DNA of 64,000 nucleotides from Escherichia phage vB_EcoM_G4507, in sequence record NC_054919.1, one strand, 5' to 3'. This document shows positions 2,237 through 42,208 of the stretch, piece after piece. Position 1 is the stretch's first letter; the number at the start of each line of letters is the position of its first letter. The translations under genes were made by a program, and so were the position numbers. The notes under the pieces are model-generated. The model was not told the origin of the DNA. It ran no database searches and saw only the letters and a list, made by a program, of their open reading frames with translations.

Positions 2237-2830
2237 TTATTTCAGAGAATTAATGTATTCCTGAACATCGGCAGAGGTAGTTTCAACCCCAGAAATATTG
2301 CCATTAAAGGTTTCAACTCGGGCAAGAGTATCTTCAATATCAACCTTAGTCAGTGCTGCAATTTCAACTACATCATCAGCAGTACTAATTCCAAGTGCAT
2401 TCGCAGCACGAGTTTCACGGATATATTCCAATTTAACTGCAAGTTCTTGACGAGCATCATCTAACTCAACTACTTTCTTGGCGATTTCAATTCGCATTTC
2501 AGCATAACCATCAGCTTTAGTAGTCAACTGCTCAGCTGTTCGACGATATAGTAAACCGAGTTTAGCATGCATTGTTACATCTTGACCTTCAGAAAGGAGC
2601 TTGCGAATTTCGCGCTCTTTTGATTCGGCCTGCTTATTCTTTTCGACAATAAGTTCACGAATACGCTTTTCTTCGTTAATAGATTTAATGGAAGCAGTTT
2701 TTAGGTCTTTAATCTTATCAAGTAGTTTTGCTGCTGCAGCAGTATACTGTTCTTCAACAGATAGATTTTTAGCCATAGCAGAACCAAGTTTAGTGCGAAT
2801 AAACTCAACAATTTTCTTCAGTGTGTTCAT
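2237..2830 (-). CDS. coiled-coil protein, unknown function (e-region accessory ORF)
   Basis: Track ORF 197 aa; ATG at 2828-2830 preceded by AAGGAA RBS; K/E/R/L-rich sequence; early promoter immediately upstream. Confidence 0.6.
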
Positions 2831-2871
2831 AGTATTTCCTTAGGTTGATTAAAATTAAAATCCACAGAAAA

Positions 2872-2900
2872 ATTATATCATGCTATTTAAGAGATGTAAA
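2872..2900 (-). promoter_or_regulatory. sigma70-type early promoter upstream of ORF 2237..2830
   Basis: Minus strand TTTACA (plus 2895-2900) - 17 nt - TATAAT (plus 2872-2877); lies in the 3' end of the upstream ORF. Confidence 0.55.
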
Positions 2901-3391
2901 CTATTTTTAATTTTACAAATTCGTTCAGCTTCTTCAACAGCGGCAGTGATAATGCTTTTAGCTATAGGAGTACTAATACTAGTAGCTTTTACACTTAACA
3001 CGATTTCTTTATCTTTACCAGGCCAACCCCACGATTTTTCACCATGAGTGCCTTTAATTACAGCAGACACCTCAAGTGAGCATCCATTATCACATGTTTT
3101 TACATTAACAACCCAAGTGTCACTTTTCTCAACCGGTTTATCCCAGTAAATATTAAGAATACGTGGGACATCAAATTTAGCAGGGCAAATCTTAACAGTA
3201 AGACCTTCGCTTTCTAGCCAATTAATAAGAGGGCGTTCATACATGCGGCGATGTGGGCTTTGAACTCGACAAGCTTTGTACCCATTGCTTGCGGCTTCAC
3301 TAAGCTCTTCTAATACCTGCTTTTGCATTATTGATAAGATACCATCAAAAGATTTTTCGGAAGTTTCATTCAGTTCGGTATAAAGAGACAT
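2873..3391 (-). CDS. hypothetical protein (e-region accessory ORF)
   Basis: Track ORF 2873..3406 begins at a TTG; first ATG (MSLYTELNE) at 3389-3391 with GAGGA RBS 8 nt upstream; early promoter upstream. Confidence 0.55.
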   Translation of the reverse strand: MSLYTELNETSEKSFDGILSIMQKQVLEELSEAASNGYKACRVQSPHRRMYERPLINWLESEGLTVKICPAKFDVPRILNIYWDKPVEKSDTWVVNVKTCDNGCSLEVSAVIKGTHGEKSWGWPGKDKEIVLSVKATSISTPIAKSIITAAVEEAERICKIKNSLHLLNSMI

Positions 3392-29064: not shown

Positions 29065-32202
<3,138 letters not shown>

Positions 32203-32233
32203 ATATATTAAAGCATATTAAAGAGGATTAAAA

Positions 32234-34213
32234 ATGACTTTATTATCTCCGGGCATTGAGCTCAAAGAAACTACGGTTCAAAGCACCGTGGTTAATAACT
32301 CTACTGGTACAGCAGCTTTGGCCGGTAAATTCCAGTGGGGTCCTGCTTTTCAGATTAAACAGGTTACAAATGAAGTAGATTTAGTTAATACTTTTGGTCA
32401 ACCAACCGCTGAAACAGCTGACTACTTTATGTCTGCGATGAATTTCTTGCAGTACGGAAATGACTTACGAGTAGTTCGTGCTGTTGATAGAGATACCGCT
32501 AAAAACTCATCGCCAATTGCTGGTAATATTGAATACACAATTTCTACCCCAGGTAGTAACTATGCAGTTGGAGATAAAATCACGGTCAAATATGTTTCAG
32601 ATGATATTGAAACTGAAGGTAAAATTACTGAAGTAGACGCAGATGGAAAAATTAAGAAAATTAATATTCCTACTGCAAAAATTATTGCTAAAGCTAAAGA
32701 AGTTGGCGAATACCCAGCATTAGGTTCTAACTGGACTGCAGAAATTTCTTCATCTTCTTCCGGTTTAGCTGCAGTAATAACTCTTGGAAAAATTATTACT
32801 GATTCCGGTATTTTATTAGCTGAAATCGAGAGCGCTGAAACTGCTATGACAGCAGTTGATTTTCAGGCAAATCTTGAAAAATATGGAATTCCAGGAGTAG
32901 TAGCTCTCTATCCAGGCGAATTAGGCGATAAAATTGAAATTGAAATCGTATCTAAAGCTGACTATGCGAAAGGCGCTTCTGCATTACTCCCAATTTATCC
33001 AGGTGGTGGTACTCGCGCATCTACTGCCAAAGCAGTGTTTGGATATGGACCACAAACTGATTCACAGTACGCCATTATAGTTCGTCGTAATGATGCTATT
33101 GTTCAAAGCGTTGTTCTTTCAACTAAGCGTGGTGAAAAAGATATTTACGATAGTAACATCTATATTGATGACTTTTTCGCAAAAGGTGGTTCAGAATATA
33201 TTTTCGCAACTGCGCAAAACTGGCCAGAAGGCTTCTCTGGAATTTTAACTCTGTCTGGTGGATTATCATCAAATGCTGAAGTAACAGCAGGAGATTTGAT
33301 GGAAGCTTGGGACTTCTTTGCTGACCGCGAATCTGTTGACGTTCAGTTGTTTATTGCGGGTTCTTGTGCCGGTGAATCTTTAGAAACAGCATCTACTGTC
33401 CAAAAACATGTTGTTTCAATTGGTGATGCTCGTCAAGATTGCTTAGTATTGTGCTCACCTCCGCGTGAAACTGTAGTTGGAATTCCTGTAACTCGTGCAG
33501 TAGATAATTTAGTTAACTGGAGAACTGCAGCAGGTTCATACACTGATAATAACTTTAATATCAGTTCAACCTATGCAGCAATTGATGGTAACTATAAGTA
33601 TCAGTATGACAAATATAATGATGTGAATCGTTGGGTTCCATTAGCAGCTGATATTGCTGGTTTATGCGCAAGAACTGATAACGTATCTCAGACTTGGATG
33701 TCTCCAGCTGGTTATAATCGTGGCCAAATTTTGAACGTTATTAAACTGGCTATTGAAACTCGCCAGGCTCAGCGCGACCGTTTATACCAAGAAGCTATCA
33801 ACCCGGTAACCGGTACAGGTGGTGATGGTTACGTATTGTATGGTGATAAAACAGCTACTTCTGTTCCTTCTCCATTTGATCGTATTAACGTTCGTCGTCT
33901 GTTTAATATGTTGAAAACGAATATCGGACGTAGTTCAAAATATCGTTTGTTCGAATTAAACAACGCGTTTACTCGTTCATCATTCCGCACAGAAACTGCC
34001 CAGTACTTGCAGGGAATTAAAGCTCTCGGTGGAATTTATGAATATCGTGTAGTTTGCGATACAACAAATAATACTCCGTCAGTAATTGATAGAAATGAGT
34101 TTGTTGCAACATTCTACATCCAACCGGCTCGTAGTATAAATTATATCCAACTTAATTTCGTCGCAACTGCTACTGGTGCAGATTTTGATGAGTTAACTGG
34201 TCTTGCAGGTTAA
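32234..34213 (+). CDS. 18: tail sheath protein gp18
   Basis: Track ORF 659 aa as T4 gp18. Confidence 0.9.
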   Translation: MTLLSPGIELKETTVQSTVVNNSTGTAALAGKFQWGPAFQIKQVTNEVDLVNTFGQPTAETADYFMSAMNFLQYGNDLRVVRAVDRDTAKNSSPIAGNIEYTISTPGSNYAVGDKITVKYVSDDIETEGKITEVDADGKIKKINIPTAKIIAKAKEVGEYPALGSNWTAEISSSSSGLAAVITLGKIITDSGILLAEIESAETAMTAVDFQANLEKYGIPGVVALYPGELGDKIEIEIVSKADYAKGASALLPIYPGGGTRASTAKAVFGYGPQTDSQYAIIVRRNDAIVQSVVLSTKRGEKDIYDSNIYIDDFFAKGGSEYIFATAQNWPEGFSGILTLSGGLSSNAEVTAGDLMEAWDFFADRESVDVQLFIAGSCAGESLETASTVQKHVVSIGDARQDCLVLCSPPRETVVGIPVTRAVDNLVNWRTAAGSYTDNNFNISSTYAAIDGNYKYQYDKYNDVNRWVPLAADIAGLCARTDNVSQTWMSPAGYNRGQILNVIKLAIETRQAQRDRLYQEAINPVTGTGGDGYVLYGDKTATSVPSPFDRINVRRLFNMLKTNIGRSSKYRLFELNNAFTRSSFRTETAQYLQGIKALGGIYEYRVVCDTTNNTPSVIDRNEFVATFYIQPARSINYIQLNFVATATGADFDELTGLAG

Positions 34214-34221
34214 TTGATTAT

Positions 34222-34235
34222 GGGGCTTCGGCCCC
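34222..34235 (+). terminator. GC hairpin immediately after gene 18 (terminator or RNA-stability hairpin)
   Basis: GGGGCTTCGGCCCC, perfect 5-bp GC stem with TTCG loop; no strong U-tract. Confidence 0.45.
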
Positions 34236-34252
34236 TATTCTCGAGGAAACAA

Positions 34253-34858
34253 GTGATTATTTCTAAGTTTGTTACAATAAAACCAAGAAATCATTCAAAA
34301 ATGTGGTCGACAATTCTGGGATATAAAGTATCATATCATGATACAGTATCTGTTCCAATAGAATTAATGCCAAAGAATAGTAATAAAATAGTTGACGCTA
34401 AATGTGATTTGTGTGGTACTAAATTTAGTAGAAGCATTCAACTTTTAAATAGAACACCCACACATGCATGTAGAAAATGTAGCATTAAACAAGTTGCTAT
34501 TAAAAATTCGGAAGTTCAATCTGGAATAAGCAGACCATGGCAAAGAGGCGATAAACATCCTCGATGGACTGGTAAAAGAAAAGAGTTTGCATTATATGCT
34601 AGTAGAGTTCATTCTATAACTAAGTCAGCTAAAATAAGAAAAATTTGGTCAAAATGGCCGAATGCTGATAAAATAGGAGTGTGTGGAGTAGAAGGTGCTT
34701 ACCAACTCGATCATAAAGTATCTATCAAATATGGATTTGATAATTTAATTCCGCCGGAAATTATAGCAAGCGTAAAAAATTTAGAAATAATCACTTGGGA
34801 ATCTAACCGAGAAAAGTCAAAAAGAAATAGCGTAGATCTTTGGGATTTACTAGAATGA
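34253..34858 (+). CDS. HNH-family endonuclease (free-standing homing-endonuclease-like gene) between genes 18 and 19
   Basis: Track ORF 34214..34858; C-terminal D-H...N...N motif (QLDHKVSIKYGFDN..NLEIITWESNREKSKRN) and CxxC...CxxC zinc-ribbon (CDLCGTK..HACRKC); start uncertain: GTG 34253 with GAGGAAA RBS, or ATG 34301; terminator-like hairpin at 34222-34235 lies within the longest ORF version. Confidence 0.6.
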   Translation: MIISKFVTIKPRNHSKMWSTILGYKVSYHDTVSVPIELMPKNSNKIVDAKCDLCGTKFSRSIQLLNRTPTHACRKCSIKQVAIKNSEVQSGISRPWQRGDKHPRWTGKRKEFALYASRVHSITKSAKIRKIWSKWPNADKIGVCGVEGAYQLDHKVSIKYGFDNLIPPEIIASVKNLEIITWESNREKSKRNSVDLWDLLE

Positions 34859-34865
34859 TTCTAAA

Positions 34866-34883
34866 GGCCTGTTTCGACAGGCC
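34866..34883 (+). terminator. hairpin after the HNH gene
   Basis: GGCCTGT-TTCG-ACAGGCC 7-bp stem with TTCG loop. Confidence 0.45.
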
Positions 34884-34884
34884 A

Positions 34885-34892
34885 TATAAATA
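34885..34892 (+). promoter_or_regulatory. late promoter TATAAATA (first of two) upstream of gene 19
   Basis: Exact TATAAATA immediately after the hairpin that follows the HNH gene. Confidence 0.45.
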
Positions 34893-34943
34893 CACTATAT
34901 CCTTAATTCTTTAATTCTATATGCCCTAGGTTAAACATAGGGA

Positions 34944-34951
34944 TATAAATA
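34944..34951 (+). promoter_or_regulatory. late promoter TATAAATA upstream of gene 19
   Basis: Exact TATAAATA 15 nt upstream of ATG 34966. Confidence 0.55.
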
Positions 34952-34965
34952 CTACAGAGGCTAAT

Positions 34966-35457
34966 ATGTTTGTAGATGATGTAACACGAGCGTTTGAATC
35001 TGGTGATTTTGCTCGACCTAACTTATTCCAAGTAGAAATTTCTTATCTTGGACAAAATTTTACATTCCAATGTAAAGCCACTGCTTTACCAGCTGGTATT
35101 GTAGAAAAAATTCCAGTCGGATTTATGAACCGTAAAATTAACGTAGCAGGCGATCGTACATTCGATGACTGGACTGTTACAGTAATGAACGATGAAGCTC
35201 ATGATGCTCGCCAGAAGTTTGTTGATTGGCAAAGCATTGCTGCTGGTCAAGGAAACGAAATTACTGGTGGAAAACCTGCAGAGTATAAAAAGAGCGCTAT
35301 TGTTCGTCAATATGCTCGTGATGCTAAAACAGTAACAAAAGAAATTGAAATTAAAGGTCTGTGGCCTACTAACGTGGGTGAACTTCAATTAGATTGGGAT
35401 TCAAACAATGAAATCCAAACCTTTGAAGTAACTCTTGCTCTCGATTATTGGGAATAA
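34966..35457 (+). CDS. 19: tail tube protein gp19
   Basis: Track ORF 163 aa as T4 gp19; TATAAATA late promoters upstream. Confidence 0.9.
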   Translation: MFVDDVTRAFESGDFARPNLFQVEISYLGQNFTFQCKATALPAGIVEKIPVGFMNRKINVAGDRTFDDWTVTVMNDEAHDARQKFVDWQSIAAGQGNEITGGKPAEYKKSAIVRQYARDAKTVTKEIEIKGLWPTNVGELQLDWDSNNEIQTFEVTLALDYWE

Positions 35458-39275: not shown

Positions 39276-40841
39276 ATGACTATCAAAACTAAAGCTGAAC
39301 TTTTGAACAAATGGAAGCCATTACTGGAAGGTGAAGGTTTACCGGAAATTGCTAATAGCAAACAAGCGATTATCGCTAAAATCTTTGAAAACCAGGAAAA
39401 AGATTTCCAGACAGCTCCGGAATATAAAGACGAAAAAATTGCTCAGGCATTCGGTTCTTTCTTAACAGAAGCTGAAATCGGTGGTGACCACGGTTACAAT
39501 GCTACCAACATCGCCGCAGGTCAGACTTCTGGCGCAGTAACTCAGATTGGCCCAGCTGTTATGGGTATGGTACGTCGTGCTATTCCTAACCTGATTGCTT
39601 TCGATATTTGTGGTGTTCAGCCAATGAACAGCCCGACTGGCCAGGTATTCGCGCTGCGCGCAGTATATGGTAAAGATCCAATCGCTTCCGGCGCTAAAGA
39701 AGCATTCCACCCAATGTATGGTCCAGATGCAATGTTCTCTGGTCAGGGTGCTGCTAAGAAATTCGCTGCTTTGAAAGCAAGTGATACTCTTGAAGTCGGA
39801 ACTATTTACACTCACTTCTTCCAGGAAACTGGTACAGTATATCTGCAAGCTACAGCAGCTAAACAAATTGATTCAGGCGCATCTGACGCAGACAAATTAG
39901 ATGCTGAAATTAAGAAACAAATGGAAGCTGGTGTACTGGTAGAAATCGCTGAAGGTATGGCTACTTCTATCGCTGAACTTCAGGAAGGTTTCAACGGTTC
40001 TACCGATAACCCATGGAATGAAATGGGCTTCCGTATCGATAAACAAGTTATCGAAGCTAAATCTCGTCAGCTGAAAGCTGCTTACTCTATTGAATTAGCA
40101 CAAGACCTTCGCGCTGTTCACGGTATGGATGCTGATGCTGAACTGTCTGGTATTCTGGCTACCGAAATTATGCTGGAAATCAACCGCGAAGTTGTTGATT
40201 GGATTAACTACTCCGCTCAGGTTGGTAAATCTGGTATGACCCTGACTCCGGGTTCTAAAGCTGGTGTATTTGACTTCCAGGACCCAATCGATATTCGTGG
40301 TGCTCGCTGGGCAGGTGAATCCTTTAAAGCTCTGTTGTTCCAGATTGACAAAGAAGCAGTTGAAATTGCTCGTCAGACTGGTCGCGGCGAAGGTAACTTC
40401 ATTATCGCTTCCCGTAACGTAGTTAACGTTCTGGCTTCAGTTGATACCGGCATTTCTTATGCTGCACAAGGTCTGGCTACTGGCTTTAACACTGATACTA
40501 CCAAGTCAGTATTTGCTGGTGTTCTGGGTGGTAAATACCGTGTATATATCGACCAGTATGCTAAACAGGATTATTTCACCGTAGGTTATAAAGGTCCGAA
40601 CGAAATGGATGCTGGTATTTACTATGCTCCATATGTAGCTCTGACTCCGCTGCGTGGTTCTGATCCGAAGAACTTCCAACCGGTAATGGGATTCAAAACT
40701 CGTTACGGTATCGGTATCAACCCATTTGCAGAATCCGCTGCTCAGGCTCCGGCTTCTCGCATCCAGAGCGGTATGCCTTCTATTCTGAATAGCCTTGGTA
40801 AAAACGCTTACTTCCGCCGTGTATATGTTAAAGGTATCTAA
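39276..40841 (+). CDS. 23: major capsid protein gp23
   Basis: Track ORF 521 aa as T4 gp23; E. coli-like codon usage; strong terminator hairpin downstream. Confidence 0.95.
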   Translation: MTIKTKAELLNKWKPLLEGEGLPEIANSKQAIIAKIFENQEKDFQTAPEYKDEKIAQAFGSFLTEAEIGGDHGYNATNIAAGQTSGAVTQIGPAVMGMVRRAIPNLIAFDICGVQPMNSPTGQVFALRAVYGKDPIASGAKEAFHPMYGPDAMFSGQGAAKKFAALKASDTLEVGTIYTHFFQETGTVYLQATAAKQIDSGASDADKLDAEIKKQMEAGVLVEIAEGMATSIAELQEGFNGSTDNPWNEMGFRIDKQVIEAKSRQLKAAYSIELAQDLRAVHGMDADAELSGILATEIMLEINREVVDWINYSAQVGKSGMTLTPGSKAGVFDFQDPIDIRGARWAGESFKALLFQIDKEAVEIARQTGRGEGNFIIASRNVVNVLASVDTGISYAAQGLATGFNTDTTKSVFAGVLGGKYRVYIDQYAKQDYFTVGYKGPNEMDAGIYYAPYVALTPLRGSDPKNFQPVMGFKTRYGIGINPFAESAAQAPASRIQSGMPSILNSLGKNAYFRRVYVKGI

Positions 40842-40856
40842 TCTTTGACGATTTAA

Positions 40857-40883
40857 GGGACCTTCGGGTCCCTTTAGTTGTTT
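40857..40883 (+). terminator. intrinsic terminator after major capsid gene 23
   Basis: GGGACC-TTCG-GGTCCC hairpin followed by TTTAGTTGTTTTT. Confidence 0.7.
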
Positions 40884-40889
40884 TTATGG

Positions 40890-40897
40890 TATAAATA
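40890..40897 (+). promoter_or_regulatory. late promoter TATAAATA upstream of gene 24
   Basis: Exact TATAAATA 28 nt upstream of ATG 40925, downstream of the gene 23 terminator. Confidence 0.6.
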
Positions 40898-40924
40898 AAT
40901 CATATAAACTGAAAGGAAAGCGCA

Positions 40925-42208
40925 ATGGCTAAAATCAACGAACTTCTGCGCGAATCAACCACAACGAATAGCAACTCAATCGGTCGCCCAAATCTCGTTG
41001 CTTTGACTCGCGCTACCACTAAATTAATATATTCTGACATTGTAGCAACGCAAAGAACTAATCAACCTGTTGCTGCTTTTTATGGTATCAAATACCTTAA
41101 CCCGGATAACGAATTTACATTTAAAACTGGTGCTACTTACGCCGGCGAAGCTGGATATGTAGACCGAGAACAAATCACAGAATTAACAGAAGAGTCTAAA
41201 TTAACTCTCAATAAGGGCGATTTATTCAAATATAATAATATCGTTTATAAAGTATTAGAAGATACACCATTTGCTGATATTGAAGAAAGCGATTTAGAAT
41301 TAGCTCTTCAGATTGCAATTGTTCTTTTAAAGGTTCGTCTATTTTCTGACGCAGCGTCAACAAGCAAATTTGAAAGCTCTGATAGTGAAATTGCGGATGC
41401 TAGATTCCAGATTAATAAATGGCAAACCGCAGTTAAATCTCGTAAACTTAAAACTGGTATCACAGTTGAATTAGCACAAGATTTAGAAGCAAATGGATTC
41501 GATGCTCCTAATTTCTTGGAAGATTTGCTTGCAACCGAAATGGCAGATGAAATCAATAAAGATATTCTGCAGTCTTTGATTACAGTGTCAAAACGCTATA
41601 AAGTTACAGGAATTACTGATACTGGATTCATCGATTTGAGTTATGCATCTGCACCTGAAGCTGGTCGTTCATTATACCGAATGGTATGTGAAATGGTTTC
41701 ACATATCCAGAAAGAATCAACTTATACAGCAACGTTCTGTGTTGCTTCAGCTCGTGCCGCTGCGATTCTTGCTGCATCAGGTTGGTTAAAACATAAACCA
41801 GAAGATGACAAATATCTTTCACAAAATGCCTACGGGTTCTTAGCTAATGGTTTACCGCTTTATTGCGATACCAACAGCCCATTAGATTATGTAATCGTTG
41901 GCGTAGTAGAAAATATCGGTGAAAAAGAAATTGTTGGATCAATTTTCTATGCTCCGTATACAGAAGGTCTTGACTTAGATGACCCTGAACATGTAGGTGC
42001 ATTTAAAGTTGTAGTTGATCCAGAAAGTTTGCAGCCATCTATCGGTTTATTAGTTAGATATGCTTTATCTGCAAATCCTTACACTGTAGCAAAAGATGAA
42101 AAAGAAGCAAGAGTAATTGATGGTGGAGACATGGATAAAATGGCGGGTCGTTCAGATTTGTCTGTTTTATTAGGTGTTAAGCTACCAAAAATTATCATTG
42201 ATGAATAA
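40925..42208 (+). CDS. 24: capsid vertex protein gp24
   Basis: Track ORF 427 aa as T4 gp24; late promoter TATAAATA at 40890-40897. Confidence 0.9.
   Translation: MAKINELLRESTTTNSNSIGRPNLVALTRATTKLIYSDIVATQRTNQPVAAFYGIKYLNPDNEFTFKTGATYAGEAGYVDREQITELTEESKLTLNKGDLFKYNNIVYKVLEDTPFADIEESDLELALQIAIVLLKVRLFSDAASTSKFESSDSEIADARFQINKWQTAVKSRKLKTGITVELAQDLEANGFDAPNFLEDLLATEMADEINKDILQSLITVSKRYKVTGITDTGFIDLSYASAPEAGRSLYRMVCEMVSHIQKESTYTATFCVASARAAAILAASGWLKHKPEDDKYLSQNAYGFLANGLPLYCDTNSPLDYVIVGVVENIGEKEIVGSIFYAPYTEGLDLDDPEHVGAFKVVVDPESLQPSIGLLVRYALSANPYTVAKDEKEARVIDGGDMDKMAGRSDLSVLLGVKLPKIIIDE

Follow-up and report, generated by a model that had tools for sequence, protein, structure and literature searches.

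Analysis of a 64,000-nucleotide (nt) stretch of DNA from Escherichia phage vB_EcoM_G4507 (NC_054919.1), referred to here as the window, indicated that ORF19.1, an open reading frame (ORF) between the tail sheath gene (gene 18) and the tail tube gene (gene 19), probably encodes a free-standing homing endonuclease. The coding sequence is located at positions 34253..34858 on the plus strand, starts with GTG, specifies 201 amino acids (aa), and ends with TGA. By analogy with known phage elements, the predicted enzyme would recognize DNA near the end of gene 18 through a zinc finger and cut it with an HNH-type active site, its gene would be copied by repair, and a patch of substitutions would make carriers immune. 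The probability of this reading was put at about 0.6. The gene is polymorphic among close relatives, encodes a modular protein with a conserved motif, has a lateral history, and is linked to a patch of substitutions in gene 18; the enzymatic activity, the target, and homing itself are proposed on these grounds.

An optional gene between the tail sheath and tail tube genes

The window phage is a T6-like Tequatrovirus. Database searches with the region 33700-35400 revealed Escherichia phage vB_EcoM_G10400 as the top match (99.9%), and T6 is 98% identical. The ORF in the window is T6 ORF19.1, an optional T-even gene that has been on record for decades and is not a new find. The T6 and window versions are the same gene, with 99.5% protein identity, the same position, and the same GTG start, and no substantive difference separates them. 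Database entries for ORF19.1 give no function, and most read "hypothetical protein"; stray labels include HNH endonuclease, homing endonuclease, type II restriction endonuclease, holin, and head morphogenesis protein. The protein has its own PHROG family, phrog_5104, labelled "unknown function." No cleavage or homing experiment and no functional study of ORF19.1 were found in the searchable literature, where the names "ORF19.1" and "gp19.1" led to unrelated genes only. For T6, PMC2993671 (Table 5) records a single "other HNH" gene, possibly but not necessarily ORF19.1. A more fitting label for the gene product than "hypothetical protein," "holin," or "head morphogenesis protein" is "putative HNH-like homing endonuclease."

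The occupancy of the slot was determined with a 70-nt probe spanning the gene-less T4 junction and a second probe reaching from gene 18 into the leader of the insert. Among near-identical phages, 371 records showed an uninterrupted junction and 116 carried the insert, which confirmed the presence/absence polymorphism expected in an initial annotation of the window. Three quarters of the Tequatrovirus records do without ORF19.1. A junction pattern scan of IMG/VR identified 5 loci, all of them empty. The 116 occupied records comprised about 68 with a T6-type allele (allele A) and 48 with an RB3-type allele (allele B). Three records assigned to phages of other hosts, MG010123 (Staphylococcus phage SAJK-IND), OR584013, and PV654520 (both Pseudomonas phages), contain Tequatrovirus sequence 98% identical to the window or the RB3-type allele; these records are probably mislabelled or contaminated.

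Alignment of the window with T4 defined the boundaries of the insert. Genes 18 and 19 of T4 are spaced by 116 nt with no ORF between them, in agreement with the initial annotation. The two sequences are collinear up to the gene 18 TAA and then again from ATTCTAAAGGCCTG on; after the gene 18 stop codon, T4 has TACGGTGC, followed by ATTCTAAAGG, sequence common to the window. The segment absent from T4 therefore spans 34214..34857 on the plus strand (644 nt), in place of which T4 has the 8-nt TACGGTGC, and homology to T4 resumes on the right with the last A of the ORF19.1 stop codon. Both junctions were the same in all genomes read (11 empty, 7 with allele A, and 4 with allele B). The description of the gene as inserted thus holds relative to T4. 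The direction of the change is not established, because relatives are found in the same slot throughout the T4 superfamily, and T4 may equally be a lineage without the gene.

Zinc-finger module and HNH-like domain

The features that had first drawn attention to the ORF, a length of about 200 aa, a CDLCGTK...HACRKC segment, and a C-terminal D-H...N...N motif, were all read from the sequence and are conserved in homologues. An AlphaFold2 model built with 38 homologues gave a predicted local distance difference test score (pLDDT) of 87.7 and a predicted template modelling score (pTM) of 0.49 and revealed two well-defined parts and, between them, a linker modelled with less confidence (approximately residues 80 to 105; residue numbers are counted from the GTG start). 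The N-terminal module is beta-rich and carries a four-cysteine CxxC...CxxC zinc finger of the treble-clef/DUF4379 type (C51, C54, C73, and C76; 34403..34480, plus strand), whose cysteines are conserved in homologues. It is presumed to be a DNA-binding module. Pfam DUF4379 (PF14311, "probable treble clef zinc finger") matched ORF19.1 with 16 bits, below the threshold of 24.5. The same family was detected at E below 1 in 15 of the 38 homologues (best, 8e-4), exceeded the threshold in one distant relative (27.1 bits), and was a precomputed match in two relatives. PHROG 12131 ("homing endonuclease") and PHROG 14913 ("HNH endonuclease") matched the zinc-finger region weakly (E = 1e-4 and 9e-3, respectively); both matches are confined to the DNA-binding half of the protein.

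The C-terminal part contains a predicted beta-beta-alpha metal-finger (HNH-like) core, encoded at 34700..34816 on the plus strand, with YQLDH (D153 and H154) as strand 1, N176 in front of strand 2 (LEIIT), and a helix with N185-R186-x-K188. The D153-H154...N176...N185 motif itself is encoded at 34709-34807. Y150, D153, H154, N176, and N185 do not vary among 36 diverse sequences of the domain, and D153-H154, N176, and N185 are also invariant in the 38 homologues. In HNH nucleases, a His that acts as the general base is found at the end of strand 1, usually after an Asp, a structural Asn precedes strand 2, and a metal-binding Asn or His lies in the helix. In the AlphaFold2 model (pLDDT of 88), the ORF19.1 motif is placed on a strand (150-154), a second strand (177-181), and a helix (182-190), an arrangement which we take to be the geometry of the canonical HNH beta-beta-alpha metal finger. 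HNH nucleases ranked first in structure searches, with weak matches. Foldseek gave no match with the full-length model, probably because two domains are connected by a flexible linker. The HNH assignment is based on the motif, the predicted secondary structure, and these weak fold matches. The C-terminal domain is probably a divergent HNH-type nuclease outside the current profile libraries.

The same nuclease domain was found elsewhere fused to NUMOD3 (34 bits against a cutoff of 20.4), to DUF4379, to a helix-turn-helix, or to other N termini. NUMOD3 is a DNA-binding motif typical of homing endonucleases. Three relatives have been named McrA by the Joint Genome Institute. Both the NUMOD3 fusions and this naming also favor the HNH assignment. 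The more remote relatives keep the nuclease domain alone and have other N termini and other genomic contexts. A 57-aa ORF (P0143) on environmental T4-like contigs (L110 to L112, 3001-3174) contains little beyond the nuclease core and is positioned between homologues of gp47 (Mre11-like) and gp46 (Rad50-like); it was found on 15 contigs and is either a minimal version or a remnant of the nuclease family at another address. Four IMG/VR loci (L069, L072, L076, and L081) encode proteins of approximately 550 aa with DUF4379, the nuclease domain, and a long C-terminal extension, which gave a weak GNAT acetyltransferase match (E = 0.015).

Exchange of alleles, lateral movement, and a candidate target

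Comparison of the two alleles revealed exchange within the gene. The RB3-type allele (phage RB3, L005, 1463-2118) is located in the same slot as the window segment 34214-34858. The T6-type and RB3-type alleles are highly identical in nucleotides in the leader, the initial codons, and the entire nuclease half, and approximately 390 nt of the N-terminal half are unrelated at the DNA level; the proteins are 49% identical overall. Together with the empty state, the slot therefore has three states, in which the recognition half is exchanged and the catalytic half is kept. Judged from these sequences, the recognition domain seems to have been swapped naturally in the RB3-type allele. Variation within each allele is mostly synonymous (in allele A, 17 of the variable codons are synonymous and 4 non-synonymous; in allele B, the numbers are 16 and 8), which indicates selection for an intact protein.

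Homologues are located directly after the sheath gene in Salmonella phage S16, a Klebsiella phage, Acinetobacter phage Acj61, Serratia phage X20, and Sinorhizobium phage phiM7, although the gene downstream of the phiM7 homologue is not the tube gene. The same slot is occupied in about 35 IMG/VR environmental contigs, whose gp18 proteins are 34 to 50% identical to gp18 of the window. The nuclease was compared with its flanks by pairwise identities at 25 distinct loci, which do not amount to a formal tree test. The gp18 and gp19 identities were closely correlated (r = 0.98), whereas the correlation between nuclease and flanks was lower (r = 0.67). In two cases, T6 versus RB3 and L011 versus L024, flanks that are 99 to 100% identical surround nucleases that are only 44 to 58% identical. 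Acj61 and an environmental contig share a nuclease with 60% identity and gp19 proteins with 31% identity. The pairwise identities indicate a history of lateral transfer into one site, a feature of the free-standing homing-endonuclease genes of T4-like phages. The poor tracking of the flanks by the nuclease points to site-specific lateral movement with repeated arrival at one address, and this pattern of alleles and flanks would be hard to explain by vertical descent and loss alone.

A candidate target was found beside the insert. The 3' end of gene 18 contains a patch of about 14 differences from T4 (34130..34162, plus strand), 52 to 84 nt before the end of the stop codon, which cause only one amino acid change (T to Q). 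Among 11 empty and 11 occupied genomes, nearly all variation within 100 nt of the junction lies in gene 18, 49 to 85 nt before the stop-codon end. The patch is the densest 40-nt interval in 5 kb of flank compared between the window and T4, with 14 differences; the next densest have 10 and 9. The patch differed from the T4 version in each of the 12 carriers read, and the T4 version is present in 7 of 13 empty genomes. In 14 sampled carriers, identity to the window across the probe was 93 to 100%, and that of a T4-type patch was estimated at approximately 91%. Counting of 60-mers at an identity of at least 95% gave 248 T4-type, 88 A-like, 108 B-like, and 41 RB68-like records. Given 116 carriers, and if no carrier is T4-type, roughly 120 records would have a variant patch without the gene. 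A T4-type site only without the gene and a variant site with or without it is the pattern predicted by a homing cycle. It is conceivable, and is proposed here tentatively from the sequence comparison, that the T4-type sequence corresponding to 34130-34162 is the target and that the patch gives carriers immunity. Two single positions, -58 and -52, had appeared to be fixed differences between carriers and non-carriers; this was overturned by the empty genomes OES_C-2 and SG1, which carry them.

The proposed cycle would proceed as follows. The predicted protein would bind DNA with its N-terminal zinc-finger module, connected by the flexible linker to the C-terminal divergent HNH-type site (D153/H154, N176, and N185). 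During co-infection, the enzyme of a carrier would nick or cut the DNA of a non-carrier near the sheath-tube junction, with the T4-type gene 18 3' end, equivalent to 34130-34162 in the window, as the recognition site. Through recombinational repair with the carrier genome as template, the gene and approximately 100 nt of flank would then be copied into the empty slot. The carrier would itself be immune through the approximately 14 mostly silent substitutions.

Intronless homing by the free-standing T4 endonucleases SegF, SegG, and MobE has been described mechanistically (PMC2988022, PMC2993671, and PMC2790892). ORF19.1 resembles these systems in being an optional intergenic gene between conserved genes that is absent from close relatives, in combining nuclease and DNA-binding modules, and in having a cluster of silent differences in the neighboring conserved gene near the insertion. 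SegF and SegG differ in being GIY-YIG enzymes, whereas the ORF19.1 protein is predicted to be HNH-like. Mob-type and I-HmuI-type enzymes also differ. Mob proteins have an N-terminal HNH domain that is recognized by Pfam, with DNA-binding modules following at the C terminus in enzymes of these types, and in ORF19.1 the order is reversed (zinc finger at 51 to 76, HNH-like core at 150 to 188) and no Pfam HNH match was obtained. The closest known systems include small HNH nicking endonucleases of solved structure, namely, Geobacter Gme HNH (4h9d) and phage GVE2 HNH (5h0o), and NUMOD3- or zinc-finger-bearing phage homing endonucleases (PHROG 12131 and PHROG 14913); NUMOD3 is present in distant relatives of the ORF19.1 nuclease domain. 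The family is common in T4-like phages and absent from curated domain libraries. Natural variation at the locus provides two alleles that share a nuclease half and differ in the recognition half, numerous genomes with and without the gene, and a concrete candidate target. It is thus a tractable system for changes of homing-endonuclease specificity at a fixed address and for the effect of such elements on tail-module recombination in therapy phages.

Several results weigh against the homing-endonuclease reading. The search for Pfam HNH families, set beforehand as a check, gave no significant match for the ORF19.1 protein, 38 homologues, or 103 further relatives. With the ORF19.1 protein, no Pfam HNH family reached an E value below 1; HNH_4 was touched by only 1 of the 38 homologues (E = 0.078), an HNH family was found in none of 10 distant relatives, and none was present among the precomputed Pfam matches of 149 relatives (46 plus 103). 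NCBIfam searches revealed no HNH match, the sole match being a non-significant one to HypA (E = 0.063). Sequence and profile searches of the Protein Data Bank (PDB) returned no HNH chain, only zinc-finger or leucine-rich-repeat noise, the latter traced to an "IGxIxNLQxI" stretch. Of the homing endonuclease described in the initial annotation, the optional slot, the two-domain build, and the invariant D-H...N...N in 36 relatives were upheld, and the Pfam HNH match failed to appear. That no curated nuclease profile recognizes ORF19.1 would also suit a DNA-binding protein with a non-catalytic HNH-like motif, e.g., a zinc-finger regulator of late tail-gene expression. The position between two late structural genes and the fact that zinc fingers are the most confident sequence-level signals favor such a protein. 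The residues that are invariant in the 36 relatives are nevertheless the D-H, N, and N of the HNH signature, the zinc-finger half is the one that is freely exchanged, and HNH nucleases come first in structure searches. A non-catalytic role is therefore improbable.

The location in the 16-17-18-[ORF]-19-20 block suggests another function, that of a packaging-associated HNH protein of the HK97 gp74 or GVE2 type that assists the large terminase. T4-type terminases contain a nuclease of their own and use headful packaging, and gp74-type proteins are short, are recognized by PF01844, are needed for packaging, and occur universally in their phage group. ORF19.1 differs in having 201 aa in two domains, the extra one being the zinc-finger DNA-binding half, and in giving no Pfam HNH match. 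It is also optional: DNA is packaged in its absence by T4 and by the phages of 371 related records. A packaging helper is very improbable, and this explanation and a non-catalytic protein both agree poorly with the data.

The conservation of the slot over very deep divergence is a further point against homing, as it also fits a long-resident, possibly useful gene. Likewise, in X20 and Acj61 the homologue is preceded by a late promoter and is either followed by gene 19 or overlaps its start. ORF19.1 could accordingly be an old accessory gene, mostly inherited vertically and repeatedly lost (as in T4), that encodes a late nuclease or DNA-binding protein useful to the phage, for example, in excluding or degrading competitor or host DNA, and not in selfish homing. 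The post-sheath position shared from T-even phages to phiM7 and the contigs with 34 to 50% gp18 identity, the incorporation of the gene, in X20 and Acj61, into the late operon upstream of gene 19, the purifying selection on the coding sequence, and a nuclease divergence that, in medians, broadly rises with flank divergence are all in line with such a history. Against it stand the three quarters of Tequatrovirus records that manage without the gene, the very different alleles within identical flanks in two separate groups, the one allele that is more similar than its flanks, and the pairing of the domain in distant relatives with NUMOD3, a hallmark of homing endonucleases. A resident gene, although the main rival to homing, is on balance unlikely.

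The patch is likewise open to a simpler account. Variant patches are also present in the gene-less RB68, EC128, OES_C-2, and SG1, gene 18 contains other dense patches (10 and 9 differences per 40 nt), and the patch could be ordinary mosaicism linked to the insert. Other clusters of differences between the window and T4 were observed at approximately 32090, 32670, and 33490 in genes 17 and 18 (9, 10, and 8 per 40 nt, respectively), i.e., approximately 2120, 1540, and 720 nt upstream of the junction. These clusters indicate that the region is mosaic beyond the patch beside the insert.

Combination of the homing-endonuclease reading with the distant relatives leads to a broader proposal, which is rather doubtful: one nuclease lineage may have remained faithful to the site after the sheath gene across the T4 superfamily (T-even, Acinetobacter, Serratia, and Sinorhizobium phages and environmental relatives with about 35 to 50% sheath identity), retaining its catalytic domain, swapping its DNA-recognition half, and in places being absorbed into the late operon immediately upstream of the tube gene. 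If true, the lineage would represent a homing element of unusual age and site fidelity, caught on the way from selfish to domesticated, with an HNH-like domain outside the profile libraries.

Start codon, expression, and neighboring features

The maximal ORF frame (34214-34858) begins with TTG and comprises 214 aa. The initial annotation had left the start codon ambiguous between GTG 34253 and ATG 34301; the ORF19.1 start is GTG 34253. This codon was chosen because the M/V-I-I-S-K N terminus (MIISK) is kept in all homologues, because the upstream in-frame ATG at 34220 varies among carriers (ATG, AAG, or GTG), and because residues 1 to 16 counted from GTG are modelled with confidence (pLDDT of 94). 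The GTG start is also used in the T6 GenBank entry, in Salmonella phage S16, and in a Klebsiella phage. A GAGG Shine-Dalgarno sequence (34243..34246, plus strand) was read 6 nt before the start codon.

The leader contains a GGGGC-UUCG-GCCCC hairpin, GGGGCTTCGGCCCC (34222..34235, plus strand), which lies within the insert and is common to the T6-type and RB3-type alleles. It was formed in the minimum free energy (MFE) fold, and the 95-nt region was no more stable than shuffled sequences (z = -0.77). Masking of the ribosome-binding site by this hairpin was considered and is not supported by the z score or by the GAGG, which is only partly paired. The GGCCTG...CAGGCC hairpin on the right (34866..34883, plus strand) is present in T4 with one loop difference. 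Motif scans located two late-promoter motifs, TATAAATA, upstream of gene 19 (34885-34892 and 34944-34951, plus strand), both identical in T4. Since T4, without the gene, has the right-hand hairpin and both motifs nearly base for base, these elements are ancestral and lie outside the insert. The view in the initial annotation of a mobile cassette delimited by two hairpins and TATAAATA was consequently rejected, leaving the left hairpin as the sole such element within the insert.

Motif scans did not reveal a promoter dedicated to ORF19.1: the insert lacks TATAAATA, and its sigma-70-like matches are weak and no better than expected by chance. Upstream, the closest late promoter TATAAATA precedes gene 18 (32198-32205). 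Transcription of ORF19.1 would thus be late, continuing from gene 18 through the UUCG hairpin, with translation from a weak GTG start. Read-through, the hairpin, and the weak start would fit low-level expression. In Serratia phage X20 (L010, 2401-3190), the late promoter TATAAATA stands just before the homologue, which is separated from gene 19 by 3 nt. In Acinetobacter phage Acj61 (L009, 2450-3130), TATAAATA again stands just before the homologue, which overlaps the gene 19 start. This arrangement makes the gene part of the tube-gene transcription unit in these two phages.

No solid evidence for pseudogene copies of ORF19.1 was obtained among the short database ORFs checked. The copy in vB_EcoM_WL-3, considered as a decayed copy, is intact and merely mis-called short. 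The S16 homologue (L006, 2501-3121) is intact, with 206 aa and a GTG start, and is annotated as the 321-nt gp100.1, probably because the GTG start was overlooked. A contig assembled from the run SRR19906131 (L114, approximately 2575-3180) has a 1-nt deletion at ORF position 386, which truncates the protein before the nuclease motif; either decay of the gene or misassembly at a homopolymeric A tract could account for this.

Among the neighboring genes, gene 17 is located at 30370-32202. Gene 18 (32234..34213, plus strand) encodes a 659-aa sheath protein 98% identical to T4 gp18, and gene 19 (34966..35457, plus strand) encodes a 163-aa tube protein 100% identical to T4 gp19. Gene 20 follows from approximately 35529. 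Genes 23 (39276-40841) and 24 (40925-42208) are separated by 83 nt (40842-40924) with a late promoter at 40890 and no ORF, so that the lack of an endonuclease gene at this position, as initially annotated, was borne out. In T4, the 23-24 gap contains segD, a GIY-YIG homing endonuclease gene, on the opposite strand.
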